The translations under genes and the position numbers were made by a program. The notes below the pieces were generated by a model that ran no database searches, was not told where the DNA came from, and was given only the letters and a program-made list of their open reading frames with translations. A stretch of 64,000 nt of DNA from a virus: positions 12,467 through 76,466 of IMG/VR virus record IMGVR_UViG_3300045988_108162; one strand, given 5' to 3'. Shown here in pieces: positions 4,594 to 24,182 of this stretch (the first letter of the stretch is position 1; the number at the start of each line of letters is the position of its first letter).

Positions 4594-5124
4594 ATGAGAA
4601 GGAGATTTTTTAATGCTGCGGATAATTTTGTGGGAGGATGTTATAATAAGTTATCCAATGAAGATATAAAAAGGCTTGGAGGAAAAAGACCTTATGTATG
4701 TCAGTTTAATAAAATTCATATACATATAGGGCCTGTATTAAAAGATCATGATTCCGATGTCAGTGATATAGTGTTTAATAGTGACTGGAATTATGGTAAT
4801 TATGAATCTACGGTTTATCATCATAGCAATAATGGTATTTTTATATTAGGTGGAAATAAAATTGGTAATATAGAAGACCATATGCAAGATCTAACATATT
4901 GGTACGAATATGATCCGAGTCTTAATGAAAATTATTGTTATTATTATTATGAAGCTGATAATAGTGGAAATGCTATTAAGTTGAATGGTGAGTTTAGTGA
5001 TGTTAGCACTGTTTTTAACATTCCCAGTTTGAAGGTTACCACTCTTCGTGATGGCAGTTTGAGTTTTTCAGAGATTTATATAGAAGGAGTTTGGGATCCG
5101 TCATTGTATAAGTCGATTTTATAG
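4594..5124 (+). CDS. MRRR-leader family protein A (N/Y/G-rich small protein; possible host-recognition or virion accessory protein)
   Basis: ATG at 4594 starts MRRRFF; the ORF track begins at an in-frame GTG at 4585. It lies 3 nt after the giant ORF's stop and sits inside the 47-bp repeat at 4560-4606. Confidence 0.6.
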   Translation: MRRRFFNAADNFVGGCYNKLSNEDIKRLGGKRPYVCQFNKIHIHIGPVLKDHDSDVSDIVFNSDWNYGNYESTVYHHSNNGIFILGGNKIGNIEDHMQDLTYWYEYDPSLNENYCYYYYEADNSGNAIKLNGEFSDVSTVFNIPSLKVTTLRDGSLSFSEIYIEGVWDPSLYKSIL

Positions 5125-5209
5125 TTAATTTTGAAAAAAGTTAATTATTATGGGTGTCAAATGTCAGATAGAAAAATTCGATAAATGAGTTAAATAAGGA
5201 GTGTTGAGT

Positions 5210-5788
5210 ATGAGAAGGAGATACGAAGATGTTTCAAGTTTTGTTCAGTATCAGTTGAAGACCAATCAGCAGGGGAATATAGAGGTTTATGTTGATGACA
5301 GGTTTGTTGGAAACGTAAGTGAAGGAGTCTGTAATTGGAAGGATATTGAATACAAGAGTAAGGTTACTATATCTTTGAAAGGAGTCGAGGATAAGGCTAA
5401 AACTTCAAGTAAAAGAGTCGGTCCTTATTGTCACATTTATAGCATATTTGGAGGAAATGAATCTTATCATGCAGGTCCGGATAGTAATATAAAAAAGAGT
5501 CCGGTTACCACCTTTATAATGTATTGTTATAAAAATGGGGATATTACAATTACCACTACTTATACTAAAAATTTATCTGGAACTCTTCAGATAGGTAAAA
5601 CACAATTGACTATCAATTACAAACAAAGTAAAAGTCAGTCTTTCTCCGGTGGTTCTGGAGATTATGTAACATCCGTATCTGATTTCCATTTTGTTACTGG
5701 TCCAGGAAATGATAGCGTTGAGTTCGAAGGAGAGGGAAGATTGATAGTTGAGACAGAGGCTTCGCATTATGAAATAGAAGTTTCATAA
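5210..5788 (+). CDS. MRRR-leader family protein B (S/T/G/Y-rich; body unrelated to A)
   Basis: ATG at 5210 starts MRRRYEDV. The second 47-bp repeat copy (5176-5222) precedes it and carries an AAGGAG ribosome-binding site created by an A-to-G change. Confidence 0.6.
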   Translation: MRRRYEDVSSFVQYQLKTNQQGNIEVYVDDRFVGNVSEGVCNWKDIEYKSKVTISLKGVEDKAKTSSKRVGPYCHIYSIFGGNESYHAGPDSNIKKSPVTTFIMYCYKNGDITITTTYTKNLSGTLQIGKTQLTINYKQSKSQSFSGGSGDYVTSVSDFHFVTGPGNDSVEFEGEGRLIVETEASHYEIEVS

Positions 5789-5803
5789 TTTCTATTTTTA
5801 TAC

Positions 5804-5811
5804 TATCTTTG
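5804..5811 (+). promoter_or_regulatory. Bacteroidota-type -7 promoter box TAnnTTTG (TATCTTTG) 19 nt upstream of the ATG at 5830
   Basis: TATCTTTGTCT here shares the core CTTTGTCT with the box upstream of the 2148-aa gene (16147-16154). Confidence 0.35.
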
Positions 5812-5829
5812 TCTAAAATATTTATCACT

Positions 5830-8088
5830 ATGGGTGTCAAATGTCAGATAGAAAAAAAGGAAAATGAAATAAAACGGGTTAAGGCTCCTAACGGGGAGCC
5901 TTCCGTTCTTTACGAAAGTGCTTTAAAAGTATTAGGAAACAGCGAGCGGGCCCTTCAGGTATGGGCTAAGGCTTACACTCCTGGTTTTTTGTCGTATTAC
6001 GGTCATTGGAATAACCCGGCTCCAGGGGAGATGTTTAACACCGATCCCAATGGCGAACCTCTTTTAGAAGATGTGCTGTCGTATATGAAGCGTCAGACTT
6101 ATTTTGCTGATCCTTTAACGGCTCAGGATGTTAAGGATGTAAGGGATTTCCTTTTGTCTACTCATTATTTTTTCAATGCGTCTTCATTGTCTAATGCTAT
6201 TCTCTTCGATTTTTATGTAGATGGCAGTTTGATACTGAATGAGCAGAAATTAAGGAGATCCGGTTTGTATGATGAAACAGAAATAAGTCGTATTTTATCC
6301 GATCCTTCTGTTTTAAACGAGGTTTCGACTTCCATGAGAAAGTTAATAGATTCTTCTATTAACGAACATGATAGGGAAAAAGATAATTATTTTATGTCTA
6401 TTGACTATCAGTATGGTCCTATTGTTTACAAGGAGGGAGTGTTTAACCAATTTGGTAAAAAAGTACCATATAATCCTTCTGAGCTTTATTATGCTATGCG
6501 TAAAACAGTAGCCGGCATAAAAAACTTTTCTGAATTTTCATCTGCTTTTGAATCGTTGAGAAATTCATATCCTGAACTGGTTGAGAAATTCGTTTCTGAT
6601 AAAGAATTTGCCGAATCTATGTTTGATGAGTTCTCATCTACGAATAAGATTCCGGTAATAAACATAGAAGGGGATGATGTGGTGGAAGGCAAGAGAAGAT
6701 CTTTGTCTAAGCTACAAGATCTTTCTTATTACAATTCCGGCAAAATAGAGTTCCTAAGAGCTCGTATATCAGCTTATTTACATAGGGCTAATGCCGACAC
6801 CGAATCCGATTTAAGAAGCATGATATGGGATATAGAAGAGGCTTGTACGTGGTTTGGCATAGATATAATAGGGACATCGGAAACTTATGATGGCACAGAA
6901 GAATCTTTGAATAAGATAGATAATTTGATGCTGGATCTTGATATTTATGTGGCCAGGCATAATGATGTAAATTATGCTCCAACGCTGGCATCTTCTATAG
7001 ATGATGTTCTTGGTGATAGTACAGACTATTATTTTGGATTATTGCCGGAGTATATGGATAATTTGAATATCGTTTATTCTGAATCCGATATAGACCCAGT
7101 AGAGGCATTTGAGAAACATTCATTGCTTAAGGTAGGAGATAATCTATATCAAAGGATTAGCAAAGATGATCTTAACGAGATGTATCAAATATCAACAGTA
7201 TTAGCCAAGCACAACCTAACTCATTTTTCTACTAAAATATATCCTGAATCTTGTTTTAAGAACGGCGTTTTGGATAAAGAGAAAGTACGGAACGTAGATG
7301 ATAATACGCTCATGGCTTCCATTAAAAAATACGTCAGATCGTTCATGGATTCTCAGAACACAGAGGACATGATAATGACCAGGATGGCGTTTGGGCACCC
7401 TGCGGTACTTGACGTTCCTTACGTGGATGTGGATCGGGAGTATAGTCGATACATGAACAAAAAACAAGATAGCGAAAACCCATTATCCTTATTCGATTTA
7501 TACCAATCTTACCTTGACAACAAACTCCATAAAACAAAATTATATGATAATGCCTATAAGTATCTTGACTTCAAACCTGGTCCATCTTTGGGTCTTATTT
7601 CTGATGATCCTGATATTTTGAAATCAATAGAATTATCTTTATCTGGAAAAGACAGGTTGATGTTGTTTGATTATAGCATGACCAGTACCGACCCTTCTTT
7701 ATCAGAATTGTTTTATTTGGAGAGGTATGACCCTTCGTATGCTGGGAATGATTTTGAACACTATTTTTACACCAGGCACCCGTATTTGTTAAAAGAAAAA
7801 TCGGGTTCTAATATCGTAGAGCAAGATGGTGTTATAACAGCAGAAGGTATTTATGATAATTTTATAAGAGTAGGTAATAAGATATGGTCTAAAGTAAGCG
7901 AGAGTAGTTCCGGCTCTATCTACCAAAATCTGACAGGAACCGAATCGGAGGTGAAATACGATTCTACTCAGAAGGCTAAGACGGTAGAAACTGATTACGC
8001 TCCATACCAAAACAGATCTGGCTTGACGCAAGACATGACCGTAAGCAAGTCTGAATTGGATGATCTTAACAAATTGGAATGCAGGTAA
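5830..8088 (+). CDS. Hypothetical large protein (752 aa), structural-module context
   Basis: A 2.26-kb ORF. ATG at 5830 (MGVKCQIEK) is preferred over the track's TTG at 5809, which lies inside the promoter box. It begins with the 28-bp repeat 5829-5856. Confidence 0.65.
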   Translation: MGVKCQIEKKENEIKRVKAPNGEPSVLYESALKVLGNSERALQVWAKAYTPGFLSYYGHWNNPAPGEMFNTDPNGEPLLEDVLSYMKRQTYFADPLTAQDVKDVRDFLLSTHYFFNASSLSNAILFDFYVDGSLILNEQKLRRSGLYDETEISRILSDPSVLNEVSTSMRKLIDSSINEHDREKDNYFMSIDYQYGPIVYKEGVFNQFGKKVPYNPSELYYAMRKTVAGIKNFSEFSSAFESLRNSYPELVEKFVSDKEFAESMFDEFSSTNKIPVINIEGDDVVEGKRRSLSKLQDLSYYNSGKIEFLRARISAYLHRANADTESDLRSMIWDIEEACTWFGIDIIGTSETYDGTEESLNKIDNLMLDLDIYVARHNDVNYAPTLASSIDDVLGDSTDYYFGLLPEYMDNLNIVYSESDIDPVEAFEKHSLLKVGDNLYQRISKDDLNEMYQISTVLAKHNLTHFSTKIYPESCFKNGVLDKEKVRNVDDNTLMASIKKYVRSFMDSQNTEDMIMTRMAFGHPAVLDVPYVDVDREYSRYMNKKQDSENPLSLFDLYQSYLDNKLHKTKLYDNAYKYLDFKPGPSLGLISDDPDILKSIELSLSGKDRLMLFDYSMTSTDPSLSELFYLERYDPSYAGNDFEHYFYTRHPYLLKEKSGSNIVEQDGVITAEGIYDNFIRVGNKIWSKVSESSSGSIYQNLTGTESEVKYDSTQKAKTVETDYAPYQNRSGLTQDMTVSKSELDDLNKLECR

Positions 8089-8094
8089 TTTTTG

Positions 8095-8108
8095 TATATA
8101 TATATATA
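8095..8108. repeat. (TA)7 dinucleotide microsatellite just after the 5830-8088 stop
   Basis: Sequence tatatatatatata. Confidence 0.8.
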
Positions 8109-8131
8109 GTTTTTTCATAGTTATAATTTGG

Positions 8132-8161
8132 GAAGTGAGGCTTGTGAAAGTCTCACTTTTC
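8132..8161 (+). terminator. Probable intrinsic terminator
   Basis: Hairpin gaagtgag / ctcactt (7-8 bp stem, 12-nt loop) followed by tttcttatat. Confidence 0.45.
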
Positions 8162-8844
8162 TTATATATGCACGTATATCAATAACATACAAGAAAAGTT
8201 AGATTTTCATTGTTTATGAATTATTTTTGTTAAGTTTGCAATATTAGTTTCAGGAAGGGATTATGGAAATAAGGAAAAAGTAAGAACCGAACGTAACTAA
8301 TAACAGTAGGAAATGAGAATCAGTACCATCAAACGTAACAACAGCATTCATCTTATGTATAAAAACATTATGAATGATTTAGGTCAATTAAGAACTGTAG
8401 TTTCAAAATCCTATATTTATAATCTGATACAAAATCAAACCGGATTAAGTATCAGAACTATATCCCATGTACTTAACCATACCAAAGAACAGGATACGGA
8501 TTCTTTGTGAAAAGCATGTATTTTCATACATTTGTTCGTTCTTTAGTTTTAGTAGGGAAAAGTTTTTCATGGTATTTTAGTTTAGATTAGTTGAGGCAGG
8601 ATTCGCAGTGATGCGGATCCTGTTTTGATTTACAGCGCTTTACCCAAAAAAGGAAAAGCGAAAGTTGCTGATTATCAATTTTTACCCATAAATGGGGAAA
8701 ACTACTCGTTGTATATTATATTTCCGTTTTTACTGAAATCCTTCCATTTTATCGGAAACAAACTCAGCCTTGTTCCACCCTGCAATCATGATCTTTGTTA
8801 CGTGCTTCATGCACGTATGTTTAACAATTAAATACTATAAAATT

Positions 8845-9852
8845 ATGGGTGGTGATAAAATCGTCCTTTTAGATGGAGCCGGGGCTAACGGTGGTGGTGC
8901 AGCCACTAACGGTCTTCTTTCAATGATTCCCGGCATGTTTGCTAATTTGATAGGTGGTAATAAAATGGATCCGAATCTGGTGGCGGCTTTGATGAACGGT
9001 CGTAACAACCAGGACGGTTTCGGTGGGGCTAACGGTTGGTGGCTCTGGATAATTGTTTTGTTCTGGCTGTGGGGTGGACGCGGCTTCGGTAACGGTTTTG
9101 GAAATGGCGGTGATTGTTGTGCCAATGGTTTGCCGGCTCAGTTGAATAACGATTACGGTCGTGAACTTTTGATGCAGGCAATTCAAGGTAATCGTAGCGC
9201 CATAGATCAGATTGCTTCTGCTTTGAACTGTTCTACTACTCAACTTCAGAACGCTATCTGCAACGTACAGGGTGCTATTGATAAAGTAGCTGGTCAGGTA
9301 GGTATGACTTCTCAGGCTGTTATCAACGCAGTTCAACAACAAGGTTGTGAAATAGGAAATCAAATCAGCTCTTGCTGCTGCAATCTGAGTTCGTTGATCA
9401 ATCAAAGCACTTGCCAGACTCAGGGAATGATTACTCAGCAAGGTTTTGATAACCAGCTTCGCACGTTGGAACAAACCAATATCTTGCAGAACGGTCTCAA
9501 CCAAGGTCTGGCTAACAATCGTGAGCAAGCTACAAGCCAATTCAATATCTTGTCTGCGAAACTTGACGCCCAAACCGTTATGATCAACGACAAATTCTGT
9601 CAGTTGGAAATGAGGGAGATGCAGAACACTATTGCTCAACTTCGTGAAGAAAAAGCGGCTTTGACAGCTTCGGCATTATCTCAGCAACAAACCCAGAATA
9701 TCGTTGGTCAATTACGCCCGACGGCCGTCCCGGCCTACCCCTCTTGTTCTCCTTACCAGGCTTATACTTGGGGACAGGTATTCGGAGGAGGTTGCTGTAA
9801 TAACGGATGCGGATGTAACAACGGATGTTGCAATAACAACGCTGCTGTCTGA
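8845..9852 (+). CDS. Gly/Gln/Cys-rich membrane protein (one W-rich TM segment, Q-rich coiled-coil, C-terminal CCNNGCGCNNGCCNN tail)
   Basis: Starts at ATG 8845 (MGGDKIVLL); the track starts upstream at 8770. It contains the TM segment WWLWIIVLFWLWGG. The composition is unusual, with Cys doublets and triplets. Confidence 0.6.
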   Translation: MGGDKIVLLDGAGANGGGAATNGLLSMIPGMFANLIGGNKMDPNLVAALMNGRNNQDGFGGANGWWLWIIVLFWLWGGRGFGNGFGNGGDCCANGLPAQLNNDYGRELLMQAIQGNRSAIDQIASALNCSTTQLQNAICNVQGAIDKVAGQVGMTSQAVINAVQQQGCEIGNQISSCCCNLSSLINQSTCQTQGMITQQGFDNQLRTLEQTNILQNGLNQGLANNREQATSQFNILSAKLDAQTVMINDKFCQLEMREMQNTIAQLREEKAALTASALSQQQTQNIVGQLRPTAVPAYPSCSPYQAYTWGQVFGGGCCNNGCGCNNGCCNNNAAV

Positions 9853-9875
9853 TTTTATTAAGAAAGGAGGCTAAT

Positions 9876-10289
9876 ATGGCTTGTGTTTCTAAAATAGGAT
9901 CGTTGTATGAGATGGTTACGAAGAATGTTATTGTCAGTACGACAAATACAGTCTTCGGTATTAACCCACGGGCTTGGATCGCCCTTCCGTGTGAGGGTCT
10001 TATCCTTCTTAAGATAAGGCAAGTAGTCCCCACAGCCGGAAGTGCTCTACCGGTACAGATTGCGGTCCCGGCAAACAGCACAGTTTCAACAGTAGGAGCC
10101 GACACCTGTTGCCCGGTTACGGGAGTGAATGTCGTGAACCCTATTAACGTAGCTGTCACGGGTGCCGCTATGGTAAATGGCACAGAACGCCTTCTGTACT
10201 TCAATAAAGTTCGTGGCGTGTTAAGATTAATGGATTGCTGTGTTCCAGTAGCGGCAGCCCAGGCGTCTGAAGTTAAAGCAGGTAAATGA
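9876..10289 (+). CDS. Hypothetical protein with CC doublets
   Basis: Strong AGGAGG ribosome-binding site 8 nt upstream of the ATG. The 137-aa product contains CCPV and CCVP motifs. Confidence 0.6.
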   Translation: MACVSKIGSLYEMVTKNVIVSTTNTVFGINPRAWIALPCEGLILLKIRQVVPTAGSALPVQIAVPANSTVSTVGADTCCPVTGVNVVNPINVAVTGAAMVNGTERLLYFNKVRGVLRLMDCCVPVAAAQASEVKAGK

Positions 10290-10339
10290 TTTCAGTAGGG
10301 TGATGGAGATCATCACCCTATTTTCACCTAACTAATATT

Positions 10340-10834
10340 TTGATCATGTTTTCAGATTTGAAGAAAGGGTTTCAGGTACATACCCTTGATACTAATACAG
10401 TACCTAAATACGAATTGGGAAAGGTAGTAGCCGTATCCGAACCCAGGTATCTTCCTCCTCAGCCAGGTCAGTATCAGGCGATGCAGACCCGCGTGGTGGA
10501 TCTGACGGTAGAGCTCACTGGCGAAACCAAGACCTATACGGTCCCGGAATCCCAGAATGTGGCTAAGGCTATGGGCATAACATTATCTACCAGCATAGAT
10601 CCGATTATGAACGAGCTGAATGCCATAAAAAGCACCAGTCAGGAAATAATAGACAGCGTAGATGCCCATCGTGCCAAGATAGAGGCTTGTGAATCTATAT
10701 TAGAAGATATCAATCCGGCATTCAAGCAAACGAGAGAGCAGGATCGTAAAATAGCTGGTATAGAAAATAAGGTGAATGACCTTACTGATTCATTCGAAGA
10801 TTTAAAGAAGTTAATTGTAGAACGTTTGAAATAA
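10340..10834 (+). CDS. Hypothetical protein (C-terminal coiled coil)
   Basis: 164-aa ORF tightly packed with its neighbours. Confidence 0.55.
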   Translation: MIMFSDLKKGFQVHTLDTNTVPKYELGKVVAVSEPRYLPPQPGQYQAMQTRVVDLTVELTGETKTYTVPESQNVAKAMGITLSTSIDPIMNELNAIKSTSQEIIDSVDAHRAKIEACESILEDINPAFKQTREQDRKIAGIENKVNDLTDSFEDLKKLIVERLK

Positions 10835-10841
10835 GTATAAT

Positions 10842-11210
10842 ATGATAGTATATGATTTAAATTCAGGACACAGAGAATATCCTGGATATGACGAGATAGA
10901 AGACAGACGAGGTGGAGGCAGAGGCAGAAGCCGGCGTTCTGATGGGACGTACATGGGGTATGGTGGTGGTATTTACGACCATTACGGTATGCATGAGAAG
11001 ATGAAAGAAATGGAAGAGCGCGAAAACGAGCTGGAAGAAAGGGAAAGAAGGCTCGAAGAGCGCGAACGTCGTCATGAAATGGAGGACCGGGAATACCGGA
11101 GGATGGGTTACGAATCCTACCCGACCGATTACTATGGAGACGACAGATACTACGGTGACGGACCTCAGATGCGTAGAGGTCGCGGACGTGGCAGAGGTCG
11201 TTCTTATTGA
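10842..11210 (+). CDS. RGG/RG- and Tyr-rich low-complexity protein with a central ERERRLEERERR coiled coil
   Basis: Contains GGGRGRSRR, ending RRGRGRGRGRSY. It looks like an intrinsically disordered nucleic-acid-binding protein. Confidence 0.55.
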   Translation: MIVYDLNSGHREYPGYDEIEDRRGGGRGRSRRSDGTYMGYGGGIYDHYGMHEKMKEMEERENELEERERRLEERERRHEMEDREYRRMGYESYPTDYYGDDRYYGDGPQMRRGRGRGRGRSY

Positions 11211-11303
11211 GGAGCAGACGCAGAGGATCCAGCTTATCAGAAATATGTAGATACTTACGGCTACCATTTTTCTAATGCTCTCGCTGATGAGGCGGTAAAG
11301 AAG

Positions 11304-11597
11304 ATGGTCAACGTCGATGGATCCAAGAGGATCTGGAAGCAGCCGGAAATAAAAGATATTTTTGAAAAGTGCGGAGCGAAGAAGCCGGATAAAGCGACAT
11401 GGGGCGATGTCCAATATGTCTTTGCAATGTACTATTCGGATGGTTTTCCGAAGGTCTTCAAATGTGAGAACGAGTTGGTGAAAGCTACGTTAATGTATTT
11501 GGATGATCCGGATGCTCCCGAAGGAGTAGCCTTTATAAGATGGCTTGCCGTGCAAGATTACCTCGGCGAAAAAATAAACTGGAAGGATCTGACCTGA
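11304..11597 (+). CDS. Hypothetical protein
   Basis: 97-aa ORF. Confidence 0.45.
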   Translation: MVNVDGSKRIWKQPEIKDIFEKCGAKKPDKATWGDVQYVFAMYYSDGFPKVFKCENELVKATLMYLDDPDAPEGVAFIRWLAVQDYLGEKINWKDLT

Positions 11598-11760
11598 GAT
11601 CCAGATCCAGGTCCTTCCGGTGGTGCGGGAGCCATAGTAAAAAATATGATTCCCGCATTCCCGTTTTTCCCGTTTGGAAAAAAAGGAATAAAAATATTAT
11701 ACCGGTCGGCGGGCAATAGAATACCCGTGGCCGGTTTGTTTCACATAACTTTTTTTTGAC

Positions 11761-11937
11761 ATGAATATAGCACACGAATCTAAATCGAATAAAACCCCAT
11801 TGTATTTAATAGGAGAGTTGATTGGCGTACCGAATACGGTTATGGACTCAGCATTGCATGAACTGAAAGATAGAATAGACAAAGACCCTAAATATAAAGA
11901 TGTTAAAAATTGGCTCGAGTCTTTACCCAAGATCTGA
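11761..11937 (+). CDS. Small hypothetical protein (58 aa, below the ORF-track cutoff)
   Basis: Reads MNIAHESKSNK...LESLPKI. An intrinsic terminator follows about 23 nt later, at 11960. Confidence 0.3.
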   Translation: MNIAHESKSNKTPLYLIGELIGVPNTVMDSALHELKDRIDKDPKYKDVKNWLESLPKI

Positions 11938-11959
11938 ACCTATTTTTTTCAATACCAGG

Positions 11960-11994
11960 CCCGATGCGATTTTAACGTATCGGGTTTTTATTTT
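11960..11994 (+). terminator. Intrinsic terminator
   Basis: Stem cccgatgcg / cgtatcggg (9 bp, one G-T wobble pair), 7-nt loop, then tttttatttt. Confidence 0.6.
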
Positions 11995-12064
11995 AATTTA
12001 TATTGTTTTATTTTAAATCTAATTAATTCATGAATGTCGTACATTTGTTGAAAAACTATTCTAT

Positions 12065-12292
12065 ATGGAAAATAAGGAAGATTACGTTGGTTACGAAGAT
12101 CAAGAACTGTGTAACCGGTATTACAAAGAGGCTGACGCCATGAGACAAAAGCAGGACTGGTCTCGGCTTAGGGCTGTCCCTGCTCCGGCCAAGGGAACGC
12201 CATCGCCCGGCTGGGGACAGCTTGGACGTGGAAATGATGTCCGTGTTAAGTATGTTAGCATCAATTCAGGATTAGGAGGGGACAGGTTATGA
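12065..12292 (+). CDS. Hypothetical protein
   Basis: 75-aa ORF. Its stop overlaps the next start (ATGA), which suggests translational coupling. Confidence 0.45.
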   Translation: MENKEDYVGYEDQELCNRYYKEADAMRQKQDWSRLRAVPAPAKGTPSPGWGQLGRGNDVRVKYVSINSGLGGDRL

Positions 12293-12504
12293 CCGTAGAA
12301 GAATTAGCTAATAAAAGATACGGTGGCGAATTTGTTTTCATGCTTGATCATTTGGAAGGTGTAACAAGATTCGTTTTTGAATGTTTCGATCCCAGACCTG
12401 ATCACGAAGGTAAAAATACTTATATGGTTTCCTATTTTGATAAGCGCATCCGTAGAAGAGACGTAGTAGATGTGCCGTGTTATATGAATATTTTGCCAAA
12501 ATAA
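12289..12504 (+). CDS. Hypothetical protein
   Basis: 71-aa ORF coupled to the upstream gene. Confidence 0.45.
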   Translation: MTVEELANKRYGGEFVFMLDHLEGVTRFVFECFDPRPDHEGKNTYMVSYFDKRIRRRDVVDVPCYMNILPK

Positions 12505-12707
12505 TGAAAATATTAATCTTAAATGTACCTATATTTTCCGGTAATATTATTTCTCCTACCTGGATTAAAGCTGCAAGAGATTTCCAATCTAAATCGAAGG
12601 CAGAAAGAGATTCGTATTGTTCGGTTTGTGGATGTGCGGGAGGGTGTAACTTGTGCGATGATATAAGTAAATATAGGATTTCAGAACAACTAAAATATTA
12701 TATATAA
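12477..12707 (+). CDS. Small Cys-rich protein (CSVCGCAGGCNLCDD)
   Basis: The start is uncertain; MKILIL at about 12507 is also possible. Confidence 0.35.
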   Translation: MLYEYFAKIMKILILNVPIFSGNIISPTWIKAARDFQSKSKAERDSYCSVCGCAGGCNLCDDISKYRISEQLKYYI

Positions 12708-12708
12708 T

Positions 12709-13344: not shown

Positions 13345-13367
13345 TAACAATTGATTTAAAACAAATC

Positions 13368-14820: not shown

Positions 14821-14873
14821 CTAAAAAATAAAACAATATGGGATTTATAATCAGAAAGTAAATATTTTATGAT

Positions 14874-15660: not shown

Positions 15661-15667
15661 AATATAA

Positions 15668-15699
15668 AGTCGGACATGTATCTTGTCCGACTTTTTTTA
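15668..15699 (+). terminator. Intrinsic terminator
   Basis: Perfect 9-bp stem agtcggaca / tgtccgact, 7-nt loop, then T7. Confidence 0.75.
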
Positions 15700-15711
15700 T
15701 ATATTTGTGGC

Positions 15712-16035: not shown

Positions 16036-16146
16036 GCTGAACTTGACGATTTTTCGTCAGATTATAATTTTTTTTCATATCATTTTTAAGCCATCAGACT
16101 GAGAAGTTAGATGACTTTATTTTTTATGATATGCTTGATTTTTAAC

Positions 16147-16154
16147 TACCTTTG
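16147..16154 (+). promoter_or_regulatory. Bacteroidota-type -7 box TACCTTTG, 24 nt upstream of the 2148-aa gene
   Basis: TAnnTTTG; shares CTTTGTCT with the box at 5804. Confidence 0.35.
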
Positions 16155-16177
16155 TCTCATAACAAAAATGTTTTATC

Positions 16178-19100
16178 ATGGTATCAACGTGTATTATTAA
16201 AAGAGATAATAAAAAGAAAGTCGTTTCTGTCTCTACCAGATCAGGGGACAGGTCTATGTTGTTTGATAAAATAGCATCTATTCCCCTTATGGAGAACAGG
16301 GAACGGGCTACTACTGTTTTTAAAACCGTATTTTCCAACAAGTTCTTAAAGGCTTTTGGCGACTGGAGAAAGAGAGTGCCTATCAACAAACAGGCTTATA
16401 ATAAGGTAAAATCCAACATCGATCTTATCCCAGAAGCCTATAGAGAAAGGGTACTGGATAAGGCTTCTAAGATGAGTAATCCTGTTCTTGTGTCAAAATC
16501 AGATGCACCTTATGAAATCCAAGAATCGGGCTTTGGATTTTACAGCCAAGATCTGGGTGATAATATTATGTTGGTAGATGCTATGGTCCCGTCAAGTATT
16601 TCCGTACCGGAAGGACCGGGAATAGACGCAGGGCAGTATCTACAAGATGCTATATCTTCGGACTTCACTCCCGTATCTATGGTACAGGATAAGGGTGTTA
16701 ATTATATGGTTATAAAAGACGGTCTTAAGATATTTAGCCCAGAAGAGCTACCACAGACAGATTCTAATCCTGTGGGTGTAACGTATCAGACCGGAGAGCC
16801 TCGTTTGTTTTTCATGAACGATCGTAGTCAATTATTTGAAGATTACGGAGAAGCTCTTCGCTCTGGCGGAAATGATATTAGAATAGGATTCTTATCAGGC
16901 ACCGTTCAAGAATCTACCGTGGATGGCGTGGCAGACATTACTTACAAGGCTGGAAAGTATGTTCTTAATAATCCCAAATCTTTTATACCGGTCATGACCG
17001 CTTCTGCTTCTACTTCTTTATCAACAAAAGGTGGTATAATTAACTACCTTATAAAGAAAGGTCTTTTGTCAGGATCTAAGATATTCGATCCGGAAACAAG
17101 AAGCTATTATCTTACAGGAGAAGGTCATACAGGACAAATTAGACTTTTCAATTCAGCCTTATCATACACCGAGCTCCGTAATCATTTTGGTTCCGATGTT
17201 TCCATGAACGACCAAGGTATGATAACCATAAGCTCGTTGGATAATAGTAATGTAACTATGAGGCTCGCCACCGGAGGAACGGAAAGGGTTAGCAAAGAGC
17301 AGATAAAGAACGATCTTAAGTCAGGAAGATACAATGAATTGGACGCCAAGTACGATCATTTTGATGCGCTTGTAGTTTCATTCATATTAGAAGACAACGA
17401 TCTTTATGCTGATACTAAAGCTAAGATCGTATCAGATTATAGCAGGCAGGAACGTGATCAACGAAATTCTATTGTCGAGATACTGAAAACTCTTGGCGTT
17501 AGTGTCATAGGTATGACCGATTATATAGAGAAGTACCAAACCAAATACGGGCACGAACCTTCTGCTAAGGCATTGGCGGATATTGCCAATAATGTAATAG
17601 CAGTTGGTGAAGATGCTACTTTATCTGATTTAGTAGAAGAAACAGCCCACTTTCTTGTAGAGGCATACAGAGATCAGAATGCTGTTGAGGCTGTTCTGCA
17701 AGATGTAGAAGGTACGGAAGAGTGGAACCAGTATGCAGGTCAGTATTATAATACATACGGTAAAGCGTATGAAGGAGCTGAGCTTGATAATGCTGTTAGG
17801 AGAGAAATTCTTGGAAAGATCCTCGCCAGGGAGATGCAGGCCGGCACAGCACAGGCGCCGGTAGAGCCCACCTCCTTCCTGGGGCGCGTCCGGCAGCTTT
17901 TCTCTGGAATCGTAAGCTGGCTTAAATCAGCTTTATCAACCCAAAGACAAGATTTGAATAACGTTATTAAAAACATTCGTGATCTTGCCATTACTGACAT
18001 AGATAAAGGATTTGACACCTCTCTGTTAAAGGATAATGACTTTACATTATACTCCCTTTCTTCTATGAACAAGAACAAGTTTCTTGAGTCTAAGATCAGA
18101 TCACTAAGAAAAACATTAAGAGACTTACGTCAGATAAGCTCTGATAGGGCTGTAACTACGTCTATGACCCTTGCGCAGCTTAAGACCATAGAAGATAAGA
18201 TAAATAAGGTAGAGACCGAAATAGACAAGAATGAGATGGCGGCTGCCATGAACAGCATGATCTCCACAGCCGAAGCTCAGGTCAGATACTTAAGCAATGT
18301 GGTGAACACCATCCTTCATGGTGATACCAAAGACGGCAAGCTTCACTTCAATACCAATGATCGAAAGAACGTAGATATTATCAACAATCAGGTTCTTCCG
18401 ATCATGAACGATCTTCGAGGATATATCCGTAACAGAAGTACCGAATTTGATGAACGTGAAAAGCAGGATTATACAAATAGGATCAACACCGTCATTGCCG
18501 ACATCAATGGTATTCAGTCTGATATTAAATCAGTACAAGACCTTGATGAAAGTACGTTGCTTGATAAGTTAATGAACGAACTTCATGTGCCGGCAGATAA
18601 GGTAAAGAGAGTAAAAGAATTTTTCGACAAGGTTCAACACGATGTTTCTTGGATAAGTAGGTGGTTTGGTATATTAGAGCATTCTTCCAGTCCGTTCAAT
18701 AACGCTCTTGGAGCTATGATTGCCAAAGACAATTACAATGCGATGGTGAATGCCCAGCCCGCCATATCCGATTTCCTGGCATATGCGAAAAAGCATGGTT
18801 TTAACAAATCTGAATTTGAAAAACTGCTTCAGAAAGTAGACGGAAAAACTTCTAATTACCTTCGTAGTGCTCTTGATATGGCTAAATACGATCGTAATAA
18901 GAAGCTGGCGCAGATGCGAGCGTTTGCGACTGCCATGAACATAGAGATATCAGAAGAAGAAATTGGTGATGTGGTTGACAATAACCGTAATTACGTATTT
19001 AAAAGAGAAGTAGTTGACAAGGATGGAAATACGGTTACTGAAAACGCTAAATTCAAACCATCGTCTGATAGGGTTAATACCGATATTTTTACCATCGAGC

Positions 19101-22100
19101 AGGAAAAGATCTATACGGAACAGATGGAAAAGTGGGATGCTGAAAATTCGGAACTGGAATTTAGTGAAAGTTATGCCACAAGAATGGAATCCATATACAA
19201 AAAGGCTGAAGAAGAATTAGGGCATCCAGTTTCTCAAACAACCAAAGAATACCTTAATGCTCTATCCAGGCAAAAACGGATACTGAGGCAGCCTTTTATT
19301 GATAGCGGTGGTAATTTTGATGAAGTTGCCTATTTTAAAAGCAGCAATTACGAAGAAGAAGGACTGCTTCGTAAACAACGTAAAGAAGCAGCTTCAGAAT
19401 ACATATATGTAGGAACCAGGAGAGTGGAAAAAACCGGCGACCAACTTAAGATGGCCAAAGAAATACAAGCTATAAATGAAGTTTGGAGAAAGGAATCAAA
19501 TAATGTTACTAATGCCGTATCAGAATCGTTTTTGCAAAAATTGAGAGCGATTCAGAGCGAATCAGGAGGGGAAGCTGCATTGAGAACGCTTATGTTGGGT
19601 GGTCACCTGTCATTCAACGATCGGTTTTGGAATGATATAGAATCGGAACAGTCAGCGCGCACCGAATCAAATAACAAGGCTTCGTATCTCAAAATGGCGC
19701 ATGATATCATTAGTTCTACGACAAGCGATAGAGATGCGACTGACGTGGATTCTATTGTGAAAGATATAGAAAAAAATAAGGCTATTATCAAGGAAATAAT
19801 CGGAAACAATCGCGATGTGGCTGATATCGGAGAAATTAACGAAGCAACATTTACCTCATCCGAAAGAGATGCTTTTAGGGCCGCATCTGAAGCTATTGAA
19901 GCCGATTACGCTATTTTGATAGATTATGCTAAGATGGTGGGTCTTGAAGATATTGATAAGTACCTTACTAAAAGCAATAAGGCTGAAAACGAAGTAAATC
20001 AGTCTTATTTAAATGCTCTTGCTGACTCCAAGGAAGTGGAATGGAAGTTCGTACAACGTCATACTACGGCGAAGAAAGCAAAAAGGATTCAGGCTTTAAG
20101 GGATAAGCTGTTTAAGGCTGCTGATAACCGATATCTGTTTACCGTATCTGAAACCAACTACCTGTCAGAAAAGCTTGGTATAAGCAAAGAATTAGACGGT
20201 AGAGATTTTAGGAATGCTGTTAATGCTAAGATGGCCAGCTTGTTTTTAAATAATACAAGAGAAGAGGGTATAGAAGCTGACATAAAAGCGGGCATAGAAG
20301 AGGCCAATGCTATTGTTAATGAATTTGCCAGGAGCCAGGTCTTTTCGTACTATAAACGCATGGCGCCTACTGGATATGCGGCTATGATCGACAAAATCGG
20401 TCGAGGTGAGATAGATGTGGCGCAGATGGTTAAGGACGTACAAAACGGTACATCCACCCAAGATTATGGCATGGATATATCGTACCTTTCTTTCGATCCT
20501 GCAAGGGCATGGGTGGCTGAATCTGAAGCCGAAAATAGCGGCCGTAATCCTGATTATGTAAAAGATCATGGGTATGGTCATCGAATGCCTAAGAAAAGCC
20601 TGTATCGTGATGAATCGTATTTCAATGACTTTGGCATCAAGTATGATGTTGACGGTAATGAGGTTGCTACTAAAAATGTAGAGCAGTGGAATATGATTCA
20701 AAAACTCAAGGAAATAAAAAGACAATCCCTTGATCTATACAAAGAGCAGAGCCCGAACCTGTATGCTATTCCACAGATATCAAAACAAGACATAGAACGT
20801 ATAGAAGGATTGGGTATTAACTTCAAAAATACGGTTCGTAATTTTGTATCAGATCTGTGCCTGGACAGAGTAGACGATTCTCTATATGGTAAGACCAGGC
20901 AAGGAGAAGTGTATGACCCGGAAGACAGACTTAGGTCTATACCTAAATACTACATATATGAGTTGGAGAACCAAGATGATGTATCTCACGATTTTGGCTA
21001 CTCTTATTCGATGCTTATGATGCAGTCATCGTTATACAACGAAAAGCAGAAGTCTATAGAGCTCGCTCAAGGACTGGAACAGATGTTACTGAACAAGCAA
21101 TTTGAAGGCGGTAAGAAGGCTGAAGCAACCCAAGCATATCAGATGTTCAGAGACTTCTTCAACGATCATTATTATGGCATTAGGATGAACACCAAAAAAC
21201 TTACGGTGAACATCGGAGGATATACGGTAGACCTTACAAGAATTATGATGGCTGTTGAAAGATTTATGTCGGTCATGAACTTGGCACTGTCTCCGTTTGT
21301 GGCAGCTACCGGCGCCTTAACAGGTCATATCAACCTCATCATGGAATCTGCCGTAGGACAGTATATAAGCAAAGACTCCCTTAAATACGCATCGGCTGAA
21401 TTTTCACGCCTTGCTCCATCTTGTATAGCAGAAACCGGAGACATAGATAGGAAAAGCAAATTATATGTCATAGGTGAGAGAATGGGGATATTCAATATCC
21501 GAAATCGTATGTATGGTGCCGGATACAATAGAGCGGCCAGGACCTTAATGCGTTCGCCTATGTATGCTTTTATGGAAATCCTGAACTACCCTCTTGATCC
21601 GCAGGTTATGATTGCTACTATGGACAATGTTCGTTATTACAAAGGCCGGTTCTACACGTTCCAAGATTTCAAGATGGAAAAAGAACGCAATAAAGAACAG
21701 AGTACCATAAAAAGAGAATGGAACGCATTAAAAGATCGTACTTTATGGAGTATGGTAGACGTCGTGGATGGGAAGGTGGTTGTAAAGCCCGGATCAGGTG
21801 TTACTGTTGAGGAAGTTGAAACCCAGATGGCTATAACCAGGAATCAAGTCCGTAGCTTGTCGCAGATATGTAACGGATCTTTGAATGAAGAAAACCGAAC
21901 TGCTGCATCGCGCAACTGGATAGCCAGGTTCATGACCGCCCACCGAGGATGGTTGGTGCTGGCGGCTCAACGTCTGTGGAAAAGACGTGGCTTCAATTTC
22001 CAGACAATGCAAGAAGAGGAAGGGTTGTCAATTACGTTAAAGAATATGATAGCCAAAACATTTAGCCTGGCTTCCGAGTCTGGTATGAAAAACATCATAG

Positions 22101-22624
22101 ATGCCTGGAATGAAAATAAAGACAATATGAATGAGGTAGAAAAAACCAATCTCAAACGTCTCAGTGTCTATGCCGGCACGTTCCTTATCATGCAGGCCGT
22201 ATCTATGCTTCTTGCCGGATGGCGTGATGATGATGAAAACGAAGAAAGTTGGCTTACTCAATTCGGATCCTATGTCGGATTCAGAACCATAAACGAAATA
22301 GCTTCACAGATGCCGTTTATTATGGAGCTTAACGTTGTAGATATCATTAACGACCCGTTTGTTATGGGACGGAAGCTGAAGGATCTTACCGATCTTAGGA
22401 ATTATTCACTTGATAAAGTAACATCCGGTACATACAAGGGAGAGTCTAAGTTATTTAGGCAACTCGCCAAACAGACGTTTATCAAACAATGGTATAACAT
22501 TAAGACGCCGGAAGACGTAGCACGCGCCTATAACTGGTGGCAGCAGACGAACAACAAGTCAATGATGTTCTTCATCGGCGCCACTCCTGATTCGGAAGGA
22601 GACGATGATGTTAGCTACAAATAG
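16178..22624 (+). CDS. Giant (2148 aa) virion-associated protein; candidate internal/ejected protein
   Basis: A 6.4-kb uninterrupted ORF. It has no Walker motif and no double-psi beta-barrel RNA-polymerase catalytic motif (DxDGD) that I could find. It has many coiled-coil-like segments. Confidence 0.7.
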   Translation: MVSTCIIKRDNKKKVVSVSTRSGDRSMLFDKIASIPLMENRERATTVFKTVFSNKFLKAFGDWRKRVPINKQAYNKVKSNIDLIPEAYRERVLDKASKMSNPVLVSKSDAPYEIQESGFGFYSQDLGDNIMLVDAMVPSSISVPEGPGIDAGQYLQDAISSDFTPVSMVQDKGVNYMVIKDGLKIFSPEELPQTDSNPVGVTYQTGEPRLFFMNDRSQLFEDYGEALRSGGNDIRIGFLSGTVQESTVDGVADITYKAGKYVLNNPKSFIPVMTASASTSLSTKGGIINYLIKKGLLSGSKIFDPETRSYYLTGEGHTGQIRLFNSALSYTELRNHFGSDVSMNDQGMITISSLDNSNVTMRLATGGTERVSKEQIKNDLKSGRYNELDAKYDHFDALVVSFILEDNDLYADTKAKIVSDYSRQERDQRNSIVEILKTLGVSVIGMTDYIEKYQTKYGHEPSAKALADIANNVIAVGEDATLSDLVEETAHFLVEAYRDQNAVEAVLQDVEGTEEWNQYAGQYYNTYGKAYEGAELDNAVRREILGKILAREMQAGTAQAPVEPTSFLGRVRQLFSGIVSWLKSALSTQRQDLNNVIKNIRDLAITDIDKGFDTSLLKDNDFTLYSLSSMNKNKFLESKIRSLRKTLRDLRQISSDRAVTTSMTLAQLKTIEDKINKVETEIDKNEMAAAMNSMISTAEAQVRYLSNVVNTILHGDTKDGKLHFNTNDRKNVDIINNQVLPIMNDLRGYIRNRSTEFDEREKQDYTNRINTVIADINGIQSDIKSVQDLDESTLLDKLMNELHVPADKVKRVKEFFDKVQHDVSWISRWFGILEHSSSPFNNALGAMIAKDNYNAMVNAQPAISDFLAYAKKHGFNKSEFEKLLQKVDGKTSNYLRSALDMAKYDRNKKLAQMRAFATAMNIEISEEEIGDVVDNNRNYVFKREVVDKDGNTVTENAKFKPSSDRVNTDIFTIEQEKIYTEQMEKWDAENSELEFSESYATRMESIYKKAEEELGHPVSQTTKEYLNALSRQKRILRQPFIDSGGNFDEVAYFKSSNYEEEGLLRKQRKEAASEYIYVGTRRVEKTGDQLKMAKEIQAINEVWRKESNNVTNAVSESFLQKLRAIQSESGGEAALRTLMLGGHLSFNDRFWNDIESEQSARTESNNKASYLKMAHDIISSTTSDRDATDVDSIVKDIEKNKAIIKEIIGNNRDVADIGEINEATFTSSERDAFRAASEAIEADYAILIDYAKMVGLEDIDKYLTKSNKAENEVNQSYLNALADSKEVEWKFVQRHTTAKKAKRIQALRDKLFKAADNRYLFTVSETNYLSEKLGISKELDGRDFRNAVNAKMASLFLNNTREEGIEADIKAGIEEANAIVNEFARSQVFSYYKRMAPTGYAAMIDKIGRGEIDVAQMVKDVQNGTSTQDYGMDISYLSFDPARAWVAESEAENSGRNPDYVKDHGYGHRMPKKSLYRDESYFNDFGIKYDVDGNEVATKNVEQWNMIQKLKEIKRQSLDLYKEQSPNLYAIPQISKQDIERIEGLGINFKNTVRNFVSDLCLDRVDDSLYGKTRQGEVYDPEDRLRSIPKYYIYELENQDDVSHDFGYSYSMLMMQSSLYNEKQKSIELAQGLEQMLLNKQFEGGKKAEATQAYQMFRDFFNDHYYGIRMNTKKLTVNIGGYTVDLTRIMMAVERFMSVMNLALSPFVAATGALTGHINLIMESAVGQYISKDSLKYASAEFSRLAPSCIAETGDIDRKSKLYVIGERMGIFNIRNRMYGAGYNRAARTLMRSPMYAFMEILNYPLDPQVMIATMDNVRYYKGRFYTFQDFKMEKERNKEQSTIKREWNALKDRTLWSMVDVVDGKVVVKPGSGVTVEEVETQMAITRNQVRSLSQICNGSLNEENRTAASRNWIARFMTAHRGWLVLAAQRLWKRRGFNFQTMQEEEGLSITLKNMIAKTFSLASESGMKNIIDAWNENKDNMNEVEKTNLKRLSVYAGTFLIMQAVSMLLAGWRDDDENEESWLTQFGSYVGFRTINEIASQMPFIMELNVVDIINDPFVMGRKLKDLTDLRNYSLDKVTSGTYKGESKLFRQLAKQTFIKQWYNIKTPEDVARAYNWWQQTNNKSMMFFIGATPDSEGDDDVSYK

Positions 22625-22802
22625 ACGAAGAATATCAGACTTGCATTGTTTTTGTATGATTCCAATATGTTATATTAGCATCGTCAAAGAGTAGATTGTA
22701 CGTTTTTTGTTCTTACTTGAAAAGTTTGTAGGTTTATTTTTTCTGAAATTGTTTTCTTACCGGTTATCAGTCAGAGATGATAGGGAACCGGTTTCTTTTG
22801 TT

Positions 22803-23450
22803 ATGAAAAAAAATAGTATCTTGCAAAAAAAAATGAGAAGAAGATTTCAAATAGGGATGGGGGTAAATCCCTCGCTTATAATCAATAAAGGCATATACAT
22901 CCAACATGTAGATGGAGGATTATATACAAAACAAAATTGGTCTAATAAAGGATATTCCAATGATCTATGCAATGGAATAGCTCTTGTAGATAAAGTGTGT
23001 TTTGTTATAGCCACCGAATATATTGGCACATTTCGTTGGGGTAAGGATGGAGAAATAGACAATATATTTGCACAAGATAGTTCTCATATGGGAACTATTA
23101 AAAAGGATTATTGGGGGCGTGAAAATCAGAATGCGTATCTTGAATATGATACCAGTAATACAGATTACGCTTTTAATAAAGTTAATAGCTATTTATTTAA
23201 AAATGGTCAAAATGGATATGTAGGTGGCGCCGGAGAGTTTTTTTTGATATCATTGTATGCTAATGAAATAAACGAATGCCTTTTAATGGTAGGAGGTACG
23301 ATAATGAGTAATAGAATGTGGACATCCACTCGAAATGAAAAATTTACCTATTCGTGGTATTATGATATAAACATCCAAGGAGATCATTTGGATACAGGTT
23401 CAAGGGGTAGTTCACATTATGTCCGTCCTTTTACTGAATTAATTTTATGA
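22803..23450 (+). CDS. MRRR-leader family protein C (N/Y/G/W-rich)
   Basis: Alternative start at 22833 (MRRRFQIG). The first 11 codons contain an A8 and an A9 tract (MKKNSILQKKMRRRF). Confidence 0.55.
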   Translation: MKKNSILQKKMRRRFQIGMGVNPSLIINKGIYIQHVDGGLYTKQNWSNKGYSNDLCNGIALVDKVCFVIATEYIGTFRWGKDGEIDNIFAQDSSHMGTIKKDYWGRENQNAYLEYDTSNTDYAFNKVNSYLFKNGQNGYVGGAGEFFLISLYANEINECLLMVGGTIMSNRMWTSTRNEKFTYSWYYDINIQGDHLDTGSRGSSHYVRPFTELIL

Positions 23451-23454
23451 AATT

Positions 23455-23550
23455 ATGAGAAGAAGATACGAAAATGATATTAAGTTATACGAATATGTAA
23501 TAAATAGCAACTGTATAGGCGGAACCATATTCGTAGATGGAAAAATGTAG
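23455..23550 (+). CDS. MRRRY leader mini-ORF (31 aa) overlapping the next ORF
   Basis: Starts with the same ATGAGAAGAAGATAC leader. It ends at TAG at 23548, which lies inside a -1-frame ORF that opens at 23508. Confidence 0.35.
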   Translation: MRRRYENDIKLYEYVINSNCIGGTIFVDGKM

Positions 23551-23570
23551 GTGTCGTAAGCTCCAGTCCT

Positions 23571-24182
23571 TTGATTTACGTTACTCCAAAACCAATCATC
23601 TCTTCTATTAGTATCTCAGGGGGATTGCCCTCTGATAATAGAGAATTGATAGATACATATACTGAAAATAGTACAGATATTCAAGGATTAGATAAAATAG
23701 CTATAATTGTTTCTCCACAAAATGGAAATGATTATAATATTCTACACGTTAGTTTGCCTGTCATTAACTTTGTTCTTGTTTCTACTCCTATTACTTACAA
23801 AAAATATAAAGTTTATCATAATCACGCTCCAGAGTCTATTTACAATGTTGTTCCTGGATTATATAACCTGAATTACACCTACGAAATAAAAGAGGAGACA
23901 GATGAAGGGACACCTGGCAGCCCTACCTATAAAGCTCTTTACAAGAATGGTTCAAAATGGAATCTGGGGGTTGTTGATAGCAATGTCAATATAGAAGGTA
24001 GACTTAATAATACAGTATCGTTAAACACTGTTTCTATAATACATATTCAGTCTAATATACAAGATGATAGCTACATAGTATTTAAAGCTGACGTAAACCT
24101 GTGTCTAATAGATCCTTCTGATAGATATAACCCTGTATATAATAATACTATAACCAAACAATTGCGATATGAGTTCAAATAA
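23571..24182 (+). CDS. N/Y-rich 203-aa ORF with no ATG anywhere (the track starts it at a TTG); it may be the body of an MRRR family member D reached by recoding, or a pseudogene
   Basis: The frame is open from 23508 and has no in-frame ATG. It ends 40 nt before the bidirectional terminator. Confidence 0.4.
   Translation: MIYVTPKPIISSISISGGLPSDNRELIDTYTENSTDIQGLDKIAIIVSPQNGNDYNILHVSLPVINFVLVSTPITYKKYKVYHNHAPESIYNVVPGLYNLNYTYEIKEETDEGTPGSPTYKALYKNGSKWNLGVVDSNVNIEGRLNNTVSLNTVSIIHIQSNIQDDSYIVFKADVNLCLIDPSDRYNPVYNNTITKQLRYEFK

Follow-up and report, generated by a model that had tools for sequence, protein, structure and literature searches.

In a 64,000-nucleotide (nt) stretch of viral DNA (the window; positions 12,467 to 76,466 of IMG/VR virus record IMGVR_UViG_3300045988_108162), four small genes with the common start MRRR[FY] appear to belong to a cassette system of dispensable, fast-evolving accessory proteins, in which the shared leader would serve as a tag that docks exchangeable modules to the virion and in which the reading frames of the cassettes would be switched; we put the probability of this reading at about 0.4. 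The window shares 94% identity with phage crAssE-Sib (OR575929.1; a 151-kb genome from the human gut), which has been assigned to Epsilonunovirus, in the epsilon crAss-like group, in a study that does not discuss the leader-bearing genes (PMC11054128); by its sequence, the window phage is likewise an epsilon crAss-like phage, an Epsilonunovirus. For comparison we used 80 IMG/VR loci for the end of each of two giant open reading frames (ORFs) (160 for loci 1 and 2) and 80 further population loci for a third site, about 240 in all, every one of them an assembled consensus sequence from a metagenome.

An arginine leader confined to cassette genes

The string ATGAGAAGRAGATWY has exactly four occurrences in the window (4594, 5210, 22833 and 23455), always on the + strand, against an expectation of 0.02, and none of 100 dinucleotide-preserving shuffles attained four; that four genes have a common MRRR(F/Y) start, the central claim of an earlier reading of this DNA (the original prediction), is thereby borne out. 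ATG followed by three arginine codons was found at these four sites only in a six-frame scan of the 64 kb, so that the leader is not, as that prediction had considered, a string common in unrelated genes; nor is its presence on 4 of ~70 genes a matter of codon bias, because arginine makes up just 5.1% of residues in window ORFs of at least 100 amino acids (aa). The complete 151-kb crAssE-Sib genome holds only five MRRR starts, every one of them MRRR[FY], and in the 160 locus-1 and locus-2 loci such starts fall at cassette sites only, and on the + strand only, often extended to MRRR[FY]E[ND]. Leader-bearing ORFs thus do occur in other phages, in crAssE-Sib and among distant homologues, but MRRR starts were found neither beside the giant-ORF homologues of cr52_1 and Cellulophaga phage phi17:2 nor in the first 50 kb of crAss001, and the tag is therefore not general to Crassvirales.

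Peptide-level conservation of the leader

Among 205 leaders in the 160 loci, the three arginines are spelled AGA-AGG-AGA in 82, AGA-AGA-AGA in 61, AGA-CGA-AGA in 60, and AGA-CGT-AGA and AGA-AGA-AGG in one each; the third locus adds AGG-CGT-CGT, AGA-CGT-CGT, AGG-AGG-AGA and AGG-CGA-AGA, and distant phages AGA-CGC-AGG and AGA-AGA-CGT, for at least nine spellings across the data. Substitutions are rare: MKRRY (locus L004), MRRIF (L092, in an allele already frameshifted) and MRCRL (L209), together with one start changed from ATG to ATA (L030) and one lost leader (L020), while position 5 toggles between F and Y inside a single sub-family.

A profile hidden Markov model of family B, the body family of the second and fourth genes, was searched against 1.84 billion representative proteins. 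Distant homologues (<50% identity) start MRRRL, MRRRS, MRRRF, MRRN, MKRRL or MLRKR, and homologues of a further leader-bearing family, Gly_rich_2, start MLRRR, MRRKK or MKRS in other, smaller phage contigs. Synonymous variation of the arginine codons, together with M(R/K)RR starts in distant homologues, places the conservation in the peptide; by this measure MRRR[FY] is shown to be a tag under amino-acid-level constraint and not an RNA or DNA motif. The distant homologues sit in crAss-like tail modules, beside CrAss_Ring_1/2 and giant proteins of 2100–2234 aa, with BACON proteins nearby in two of three such loci and Ro60/TROVE and tail lysozyme genes in one; in one distant phage a 2117-aa giant ORF is flanked by two leader-bearing genes, a B-type gene before it and a Gly_rich_2 gene after it.

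Cassette exchange beside the giant ORFs

The leader marks three cassette loci within the tail/cargo gene block, two of them in the window. The features of locus 1, all on the + strand, are:

23–4591: giant ORF 1, 3' part, 1522 aa; a virion 'structural protein', 2208 aa in crAssE-Sib
4560–4606: left handle copy 1, made up of the last 34 nt of giant ORF 1 and ATGAGAAGGAGAT; 47-nt direct repeat D2
4594–5124: gene 1, MRRRFFNA..., 176 aa, body family A
5135–5176: truncated duplicate of the right handle; repeat D7, at the tandem-cassette junction
5176–5222: left handle copy 2, the displaced 3' end of giant ORF 1 plus leader; D2, from junction comparison
5210–5788: gene 2, MRRRYEDV..., 192 aa, body family B1
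5815–5856: start of the 752-aa gene, serving as right handle of locus 1; D7 copy 2
5830–8088: 752-aa conserved gene, intact in 78 of 78 relatives

The two copies of the 47-nt repeat D2 (4560–4606 and 5176–5222) are 96% identical, so that in pair 1 the common sequence reaches 34 nt upstream of the ATG, and the first copy of D7, which takes in the region upstream of the following 752-aa gene together with that gene's first nine codons (MGVKCQIEK), is joined straight to left-handle copy 2. Because these duplicated flanks bracket gene 1, we read it as an alternative cassette in tandem with gene 2. Gene 1 is absent from crAssE-Sib, which at this locus has only a gene-2 homologue after giant ORF 1, and 69 of the 80 relatives likewise carry a single cassette, A or B1. 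Tandems run A then B1 in four relatives and in this window, and B1 then A in four others; each order has its own junction, at which the 752-aa gene's start meets the 3' end of giant ORF 1, and since the junctions differ the two orders arose independently.

Locus 2 comprises, on the + strand except where noted:

16178–22624: giant ORF 2, 2148 aa, virion structural protein by PHROG match; intact in 80 of 80 relatives
22625–22832: 208-nt spacer upstream of gene 3; the A run at its end (22825–22833) abuts the ATG
22833–23450: gene 3, MRRRFQIG..., 205 aa, body family C, intact here
22859–22863: G5 run, codons 9–11 of gene 3; +1 in 8 relatives, +3 in 1, +4 in 2
23238–23245: T8 run in gene 3; −1 in 6 relatives, +1 in 7
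23455–23550: gene 4, 5' part, MRRRYENDIKLYEYVINSNCIGGTIFVDGKM, then TAG
23541–23545: A5 run at which gene 4 loses its frame; A6 in 30 of the 31 relatives aligned there
23544–24182: body of gene 4 (family B2b), read in the −1 frame; restored protein of 242 aa, predicted to be all-beta
24223–24269: long hairpin with arms of ~17–20 nt, read from the sequence, no strand assigned; right border of locus 2

The original prediction had both pairs directly following a giant ORF, which holds for pair 1 (2-nt gap) but not for pair 2, set off by its spacer. After giant ORF 2, crAssE-Sib has first a gene-3 homologue, its leader spelled ATGAGACGAAGA, and then a different 149-aa protein, MRRRFENI..., with a nearly identical upstream flank (1 difference in 60 nt). 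In relatives, locus 2 is mostly C-B2 or C-D, and also D-B2, D'-B2d or a single cassette; B2 has at least four sub-types plus mosaics. No MRRR ORF is present at locus 2 in 13 of 80 relatives, and of the two such loci that were read, one is a complete cassette deletion.

Between co-circulating genomes, cassettes undergo exchange, duplication in both orders, deletion and fusion. On the left side, the breakpoints of swaps, of deletions and of tandem duplications fall at the leader, and leader-to-leader deletions have moved D or B2 to the first-position start (L099, L103, L120, L125); chimeric database proteins join the N-terminal half of one family to the C-terminal half of another (P0063, P0064). 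Mean pairwise identity among the cassette proteins is 91–96%, against 99.6% for the end of giant ORF 2, a figure biased upward by the choice of loci.

Automatic annotation splits or mis-starts leader-bearing genes. Among database proteins such as P0001 and P0005, the largest cluster of gene-3 homologues (3360 members) is called from a spurious upstream start (MQKKNEKKISNRGG...), its leader being out of frame, and a cluster of 1878 members is an N-terminally truncated call.

A third locus and further families

Outside the window, the third leader locus lies at 62743–64115 in crAssE-Sib, just upstream of the muzzle-protein gene and, on the evidence of that genome, adjoining a TnpB gene. It holds MSRRRYF... 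(153 aa), MRRRFLIKN... and a 32-aa remnant, MRRRFENVNMV..., with the MRRR pair starting at 63285 and 64017. The MRRRFLIKN protein, whose leader is spelled ATG-AGG-CGT-CGT, belongs to Pfam Gly_rich_2 (PF21722; E 3.6e-16, 60.3 bits against a cut-off of 24.3), an assignment that applies to this crAssE-Sib protein and not to the four window genes. Relatives add families F (169 aa) and G (218 aa), four Gly_rich_2 sub-types, and family I (158 aa), which lies on the opposite strand and is a distant relative of D. Together with A–D, families E (Gly_rich_2), F and G bring to at least seven the unrelated body families that carry the leader.

Among three locus-3 relatives (L230, L232, L235) are a leader remnant, MRRRFDIGSPPP*, followed by a C8 run, and a leader-bearing gene on the opposite strand (MRRRFSNIMS, 158 aa); in L235 the Gly_rich_2 gene is present in two tandem copies. 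Gly_rich_2 proteins 85–89% identical to that of crAssE-Sib, starting MLRRRTIGSKK..., are encoded on much smaller IMG/VR contigs of 4–59 kb (L184–L203), which suggests that the module has been exchanged between different phage types.

Homopolymer frameshifts

Gene 4, taken in the original prediction for an intact ORF, proves to be interrupted: a TAG at 23548–23550 ends it after 31 codons, and its body runs onward in the −1 frame to 24182. Intact versions of 242–243 aa, with A6 in place of A5, are present in relatives. Programmed −1 frameshifting at the A5 run was considered and is improbable, given that GGA-AAA-ATG does not form a canonical heptamer and that nearly all relatives aligned there simply have A6.

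Family C is frameshifted in 23 of 56 relatives (41%) and family B2a in 22 of 36 (61%), whereas on the same contigs the 9.4 kb of giant ORFs are disrupted in 0 of 80 and the 752-aa gene in 0 of 78. A single lesion, at the G5 run, the T8 run or the GGGGGAGGGG tract (codons 22–25 of FENN-type B2, a frameshift site there), accounts for the disruption of 24 of 25 such alleles in family C and of 19 of 23 in B2a; the length changes in family C go in both directions, and a further stop was seen in one disrupted allele only. Four of the ten G/C runs of at least 5 in the window lie inside genes 3 and 4. Elsewhere, the sole G/C run of at least 7 in crAssE-Sib is a G11 that precedes the MRRRF Gly_rich_2 gene by 19 nt; among the 23 relatives scored, this run is G7 in 2, G8 in 3, G9 in 8 and G10 in 10, and across G7–G11 its distance from the gene is 16–19 nt. 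In two distant phages, seven of the eight G/C runs of at least 8 lie inside leader-bearing genes or at most 40 nt upstream of them, with G9–G13 runs at the same N-terminal position, and on one distant crAss-like contig (L168, 13035–14203) three small genes starting M(I/AV)RRFYN each have a G9–G10 run near codon 15. Many cassettes have a G, T or A run in the first 10–25 codons, in other parts of the coding sequence, or in the stretch just upstream. As in contingency loci, homopolymers lie in the coding or 5' region and frame-changing tract lengths are far commoner than in neighbouring genes, and to judge from these sequences the locus-2 pattern looks like phase variation.

The same distant contig has at 9235–10750 two family-B genes head to head with 34 nt between their ATGs, and in one of the two a G11 run carries a frameshift; the head-to-head arrangement could be an inversion switch. 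Outside the cassettes, non-coding T5–T8 runs upstream of giant ORF 2 (15692–15698, 16050–16125) and a (TA)n microsatellite past the 752-aa gene (8095–8108) also vary in length, differing in 6–51% of close relatives.

Body families and predicted folds

All four proteins are, as originally described, rich in N, Y, G and S (33–36% of residues in each). That their bodies are unrelated stands for genes 1 and 3 but not for genes 2 and 4, whose ~40 N-terminal residues form a common, homologous module (hhalign 88%, E 3e-6). In profile–profile comparison, families A, B, C and D align pairwise only over residues 1–6 to 1–15, and E, F and G are unrelated to the others beyond the leader. Families A, B, C and D have no Pfam, PHROG or NCBIfam match; gene 1 has none in these or in the PDB. 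The earlier view that the proteins are not a described family fits the lack of any Pfam, PHROG, NCBIfam or PDB match, and it fits literature searches, in which no account was found of the tag, of the cassettes or of homopolymer switching on the phage side among crAss-like phages. Word-indexed homology searches with C, B2b and B2a returned close relatives only, without annotation, and tblastn of the FENN-type protein against GenBank phages gave no match; as a query against 90%-identity cluster representatives the FENN-type protein has 231 homologues, reaching down to 78% identity among the 120 listed.

The original suggestion of beta-sandwich or lectin-like folds finds support in family B only. 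An AlphaFold2 (AF2) model of an intact gene-4 homologue is all-beta, with a predicted local distance difference test (pLDDT) score of 81 and residues 2–6 as its first strand, and matches generic immunoglobulin (Ig)/FN3 sandwiches only. In distant family-B homologues the start is followed by a PEGA-like motif, Y.YT[IV].SNC.GG.V..D....G, and some of these homologues reach 650–1268 aa and combine BACON and viral BACON_2 with two to four PEGA-like copies; at 18–20 bits against a cut-off of 20.8 the distant homologues fall just under the PEGA threshold, a resemblance that is real though sub-threshold. The window proteins themselves have no PEGA (PF08308) hit at E<=0.1, do not reach the Pfam gathering score, and lack a BACON domain in all four cases.

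Two other identities were examined. A DUF1566 or C-type-lectin-like fold for gene 3 is unsupported, with no Pfam, NCBIfam or PDB profile match and an unusable AF2 model (pLDDT 31). A Tat or lipoprotein signal peptide was ruled out by inspection of the four proteins, which have no h-region because residues 6–25 are polar or charged.

What the tag may do

We propose for the tag the role of a short segment, probably a beta strand, that serves docking or assembly and would attach structurally unrelated modules (Ig-like or PEGA-like beta sandwiches, glycine-rich domains and, in relatives, BACON-type adhesins) to one common site on the virion. Changes in homopolymer length would switch the reading frame of a cassette off and on, and by cassette swap together with phase variation the phage would vary its surface adhesins while leaving the attachment site unchanged. 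Among the three roles originally offered for the leader, a targeting peptide is the best supported, through peptide-level conservation; the docking function of the tag, and with it the virion location of the proteins, we infer.

The other two roles fare less well. Hardly any room seems to be left for an RNA-level translation signal, whether a Shine–Dalgarno (SD)-like string or a purine-rich downstream box for late genes: the SD-like GAAGGAG is indeed inside the pair-1 leader, as had been pointed out, and the AGA/AGG spellings are purine-rich, but pair 2 reads GAAGAAG, other leaders read AGG-CGT-CGT, AGA-CGT-CGT or AGA-CGC-AGG, no other late-block gene carries the leader, and Bacteroidota make little use of SD pairing. 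With so many codon spellings of one peptide, a nucleotide signal of this kind, translational or regulatory, appears largely refuted. It is also quite improbable that the leader has no peptide function and is the retained 5' end of an expression slot, a recombination handle left as a historical scar. Left breakpoints of swaps, deletions and duplications do coincide with it, pair-1 identity extends well upstream of the ATG, and leader-to-leader deletions put D or B2 at the first-position start, so that the proposed recombination handle keeps some support; 13 nt alone, however, give homologous recombination little to act on, and much of the work falls to the flanks. A scar is further disfavoured because it would stay nucleotide-identical or drift at the protein level, whereas the leader changes its codons with almost no amino-acid change, stands at three loci with different flanks, and reappears on the homologous PEGA-like and Gly_rich_2 proteins of distant phages. 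The main rival of docking, as we see it, is a capsid- or tail-targeting sequence like that of T4, by which small internal proteins, for example anti-defence effectors, would be packaged with giant cargo and ejected. The genes adjoin giant ORFs of virion or cargo type; they are dispensable, hypervariable and cassette-like, as arms-race effectors would be; and their N terminus is strongly basic, as is that of the crAss001 cargo protein gp45 (MAKKKIKRRGK). We nevertheless consider cargo targeting unlikely: family-B relatives with BACON and PEGA-like surface-type domains, up to 1268 aa and with repeated Ig-like modules, point to an external location, neither a protease cleavage motif nor a prohead protease was identified, and no defence or anti-defence domain was found (PADLOC was not run).

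The switching component of the docking reading has a competitor of its own, also improbable in our estimate, in which the frameshifts mark useless genes in decay or homopolymer assembly errors. Deletion of a whole locus and loci without an MRRR ORF show dispensability, the data are all metagenome assemblies, and non-coding T7–T8 runs near giant ORF 2 vary in 41–51% of relatives, so that slippage is common and may be no more than tolerated by gene 3. General sequencing error, however, sits poorly with intact giant ORFs on the same 80 contigs, and old pseudogenes with the near absence of second lesions from disrupted alleles; intact alleles are visibly conserved at the protein level yet very diverse (the 231 FENN-type homologues), and G runs recur at the same N-terminal position in distant phages.

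Several points weigh against docking and switching as we propose them. The shared motif, as read across these leaders, is 5–7 residues long, shorter than the 26–58-residue anchors of crAss001 fibres, whose N termini (MKTLRTLK, MKRVLNLG, MFFTQED) are not MRRR and show no sequence similarity to it. The genes adjoin giant cargo-type proteins, and an internal or ejected role would fit that position equally well. Sequence and profile searches with families A, B and C found no PDB homologue, and the failed gene-3 model (pLDDT 31) was built on an alignment of eight sequences. The population loci are close relatives, so that counts across them are non-independent events, and tolerated loss of function would leave a similar snapshot in consensus sequences.

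A stronger form of the docking reading, which we regard as rather doubtful, would make MRRR[FY]E[ND] a universal plug of 5–7 residues for one virion site, bearing exchangeable and individually homopolymer-switched modules in a combinatorial display. The plug may extend over epsilon crAss-like phages and those relatives that have PEGA-like/BACON and Gly_rich_2 proteins.

Neighbouring features

The hairpin at 24223–24269 parts the end of the + strand late block from convergent − strand genes; a sigma-70 and terminator scan did not report it, and sigma-70 promoter and terminator scans, which are not suited to Bacteroidota, stayed at background level. Giant ORF 1 is intact in 80 of 80 relatives. 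Giant ORF 2 matches phrog_37651 'virion structural protein' (E 5.6e-78) and is distantly homologous to proteins of crAss-like and Cellulophaga phages; with both giant ORFs, searches of the PDB by sequence and by profile gave nothing useful. A 360-aa ORF (8770–9852), annotated in crAssE-Sib as 'spike protein/glycoprotein', is disrupted in 5 of 54 relatives, the sole other gene of the control set with a notable disruption rate. The largest repeat family of the window is an array of 71-nt tandem units at its right end (63733–63989), each unit with sub-repeats of 21–23 nt (TTAAAACGCTGTAAGTCTTAATT), iteron-like in look. Beyond the leader itself, the original prediction had missed the gene-4 frameshift, the duplicated flanks of gene 1, the behaviour of the cassettes in the population and the homopolymer hot spots.

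Significance and comparison with known systems

Crassvirales are dominant among the viruses of the human gut, and variation in how crAss-like phages interact with host and mucosa has so far been traced mainly to diversity-generating retroelements and to host phase variation. The present loci suggest a second, phage-side strategy that combines a pool of tagged modules with cassette exchange and switching by homopolymer slippage. Should the tag dock, it would define the attachment chemistry of a whole class of orphan gut-phage proteins and offer a minimal, portable tag with which to display foreign domains on crAss-like particles; should the universal plug hold, highly abundant human gut viruses would have a combinatorial, phase-variable surface display.

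The nearest parallel for a shared leader is phage T4, whose internal proteins, as Mullaney & Black and Repoila et al. in 1994 are said to have described, have unrelated bodies, a common N-terminal capsid-targeting sequence and a polymorphic locus. In T4 the prohead protease cuts this leader at hydrophobic-x-Glu, and the protein is packaged inside the head. Here, too, small unrelated proteins carry a short common N-terminal leader at loci that are hypervariable among relatives, with conserved flanks and the leader delimiting the exchanged cassettes, as is reported of T4. The present phage differs in that it belongs to the Crassvirales lineage, shows no sequence similarity to the T4 proteins and no evident prohead-protease motif, although Glu at position 6 is common, and in that its family-B relatives resemble external adhesins; T4 has no counterpart to the homopolymer switches seen here. 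For those, the parallel is with Campylobacter phages, in which Sorensen et al. in 2021 reportedly found receptor-binding protein genes made phase-variable by polyG tracts. In both cases G runs lie in structural or adhesin-type genes and their lengths differ among close relatives, and in the Campylobacter phages the hypermutable runs are said to give ON and OFF subpopulations. Unlike these, the present phage has T8, A6 and promoter-proximal G7–G11 runs, a host in the phylum Bacteroidota, and interchangeable cassettes with a common N-terminal tag, and its switching is proposed from assembled sequences.

Within the crAss-like phages, two head fibres (gp21 and gp29) and the tail fibre gp22 of crAss001 attach through N-terminal segments of 26–58 residues; both head fibres are small proteins, gp29 has an Ig-like distal domain, and uncharacterised fibre analogues are predicted in other crassvirus groups (PMC10172136). 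The short N-terminal docking segment that we propose for the tag would be a functional analogue only of these segments, and the cassettes differ from the crAss001 fibre genes in genomic position. Experiments have shown adhesin function for BACON/Ig-like proteins of crAss-like phages (PMC13370021), and distant family-B homologues combine a basic start, a PEGA-like first domain and BACON or BACON_2, whereas the window proteins themselves stay below every Pfam threshold. We regard the system, in which the function of the tag is read with moderate uncertainty and of which we found no earlier account, as one that combines two known kinds, shared-leader polymorphic loci and homopolymer-driven, phase-variable phage adhesin genes.

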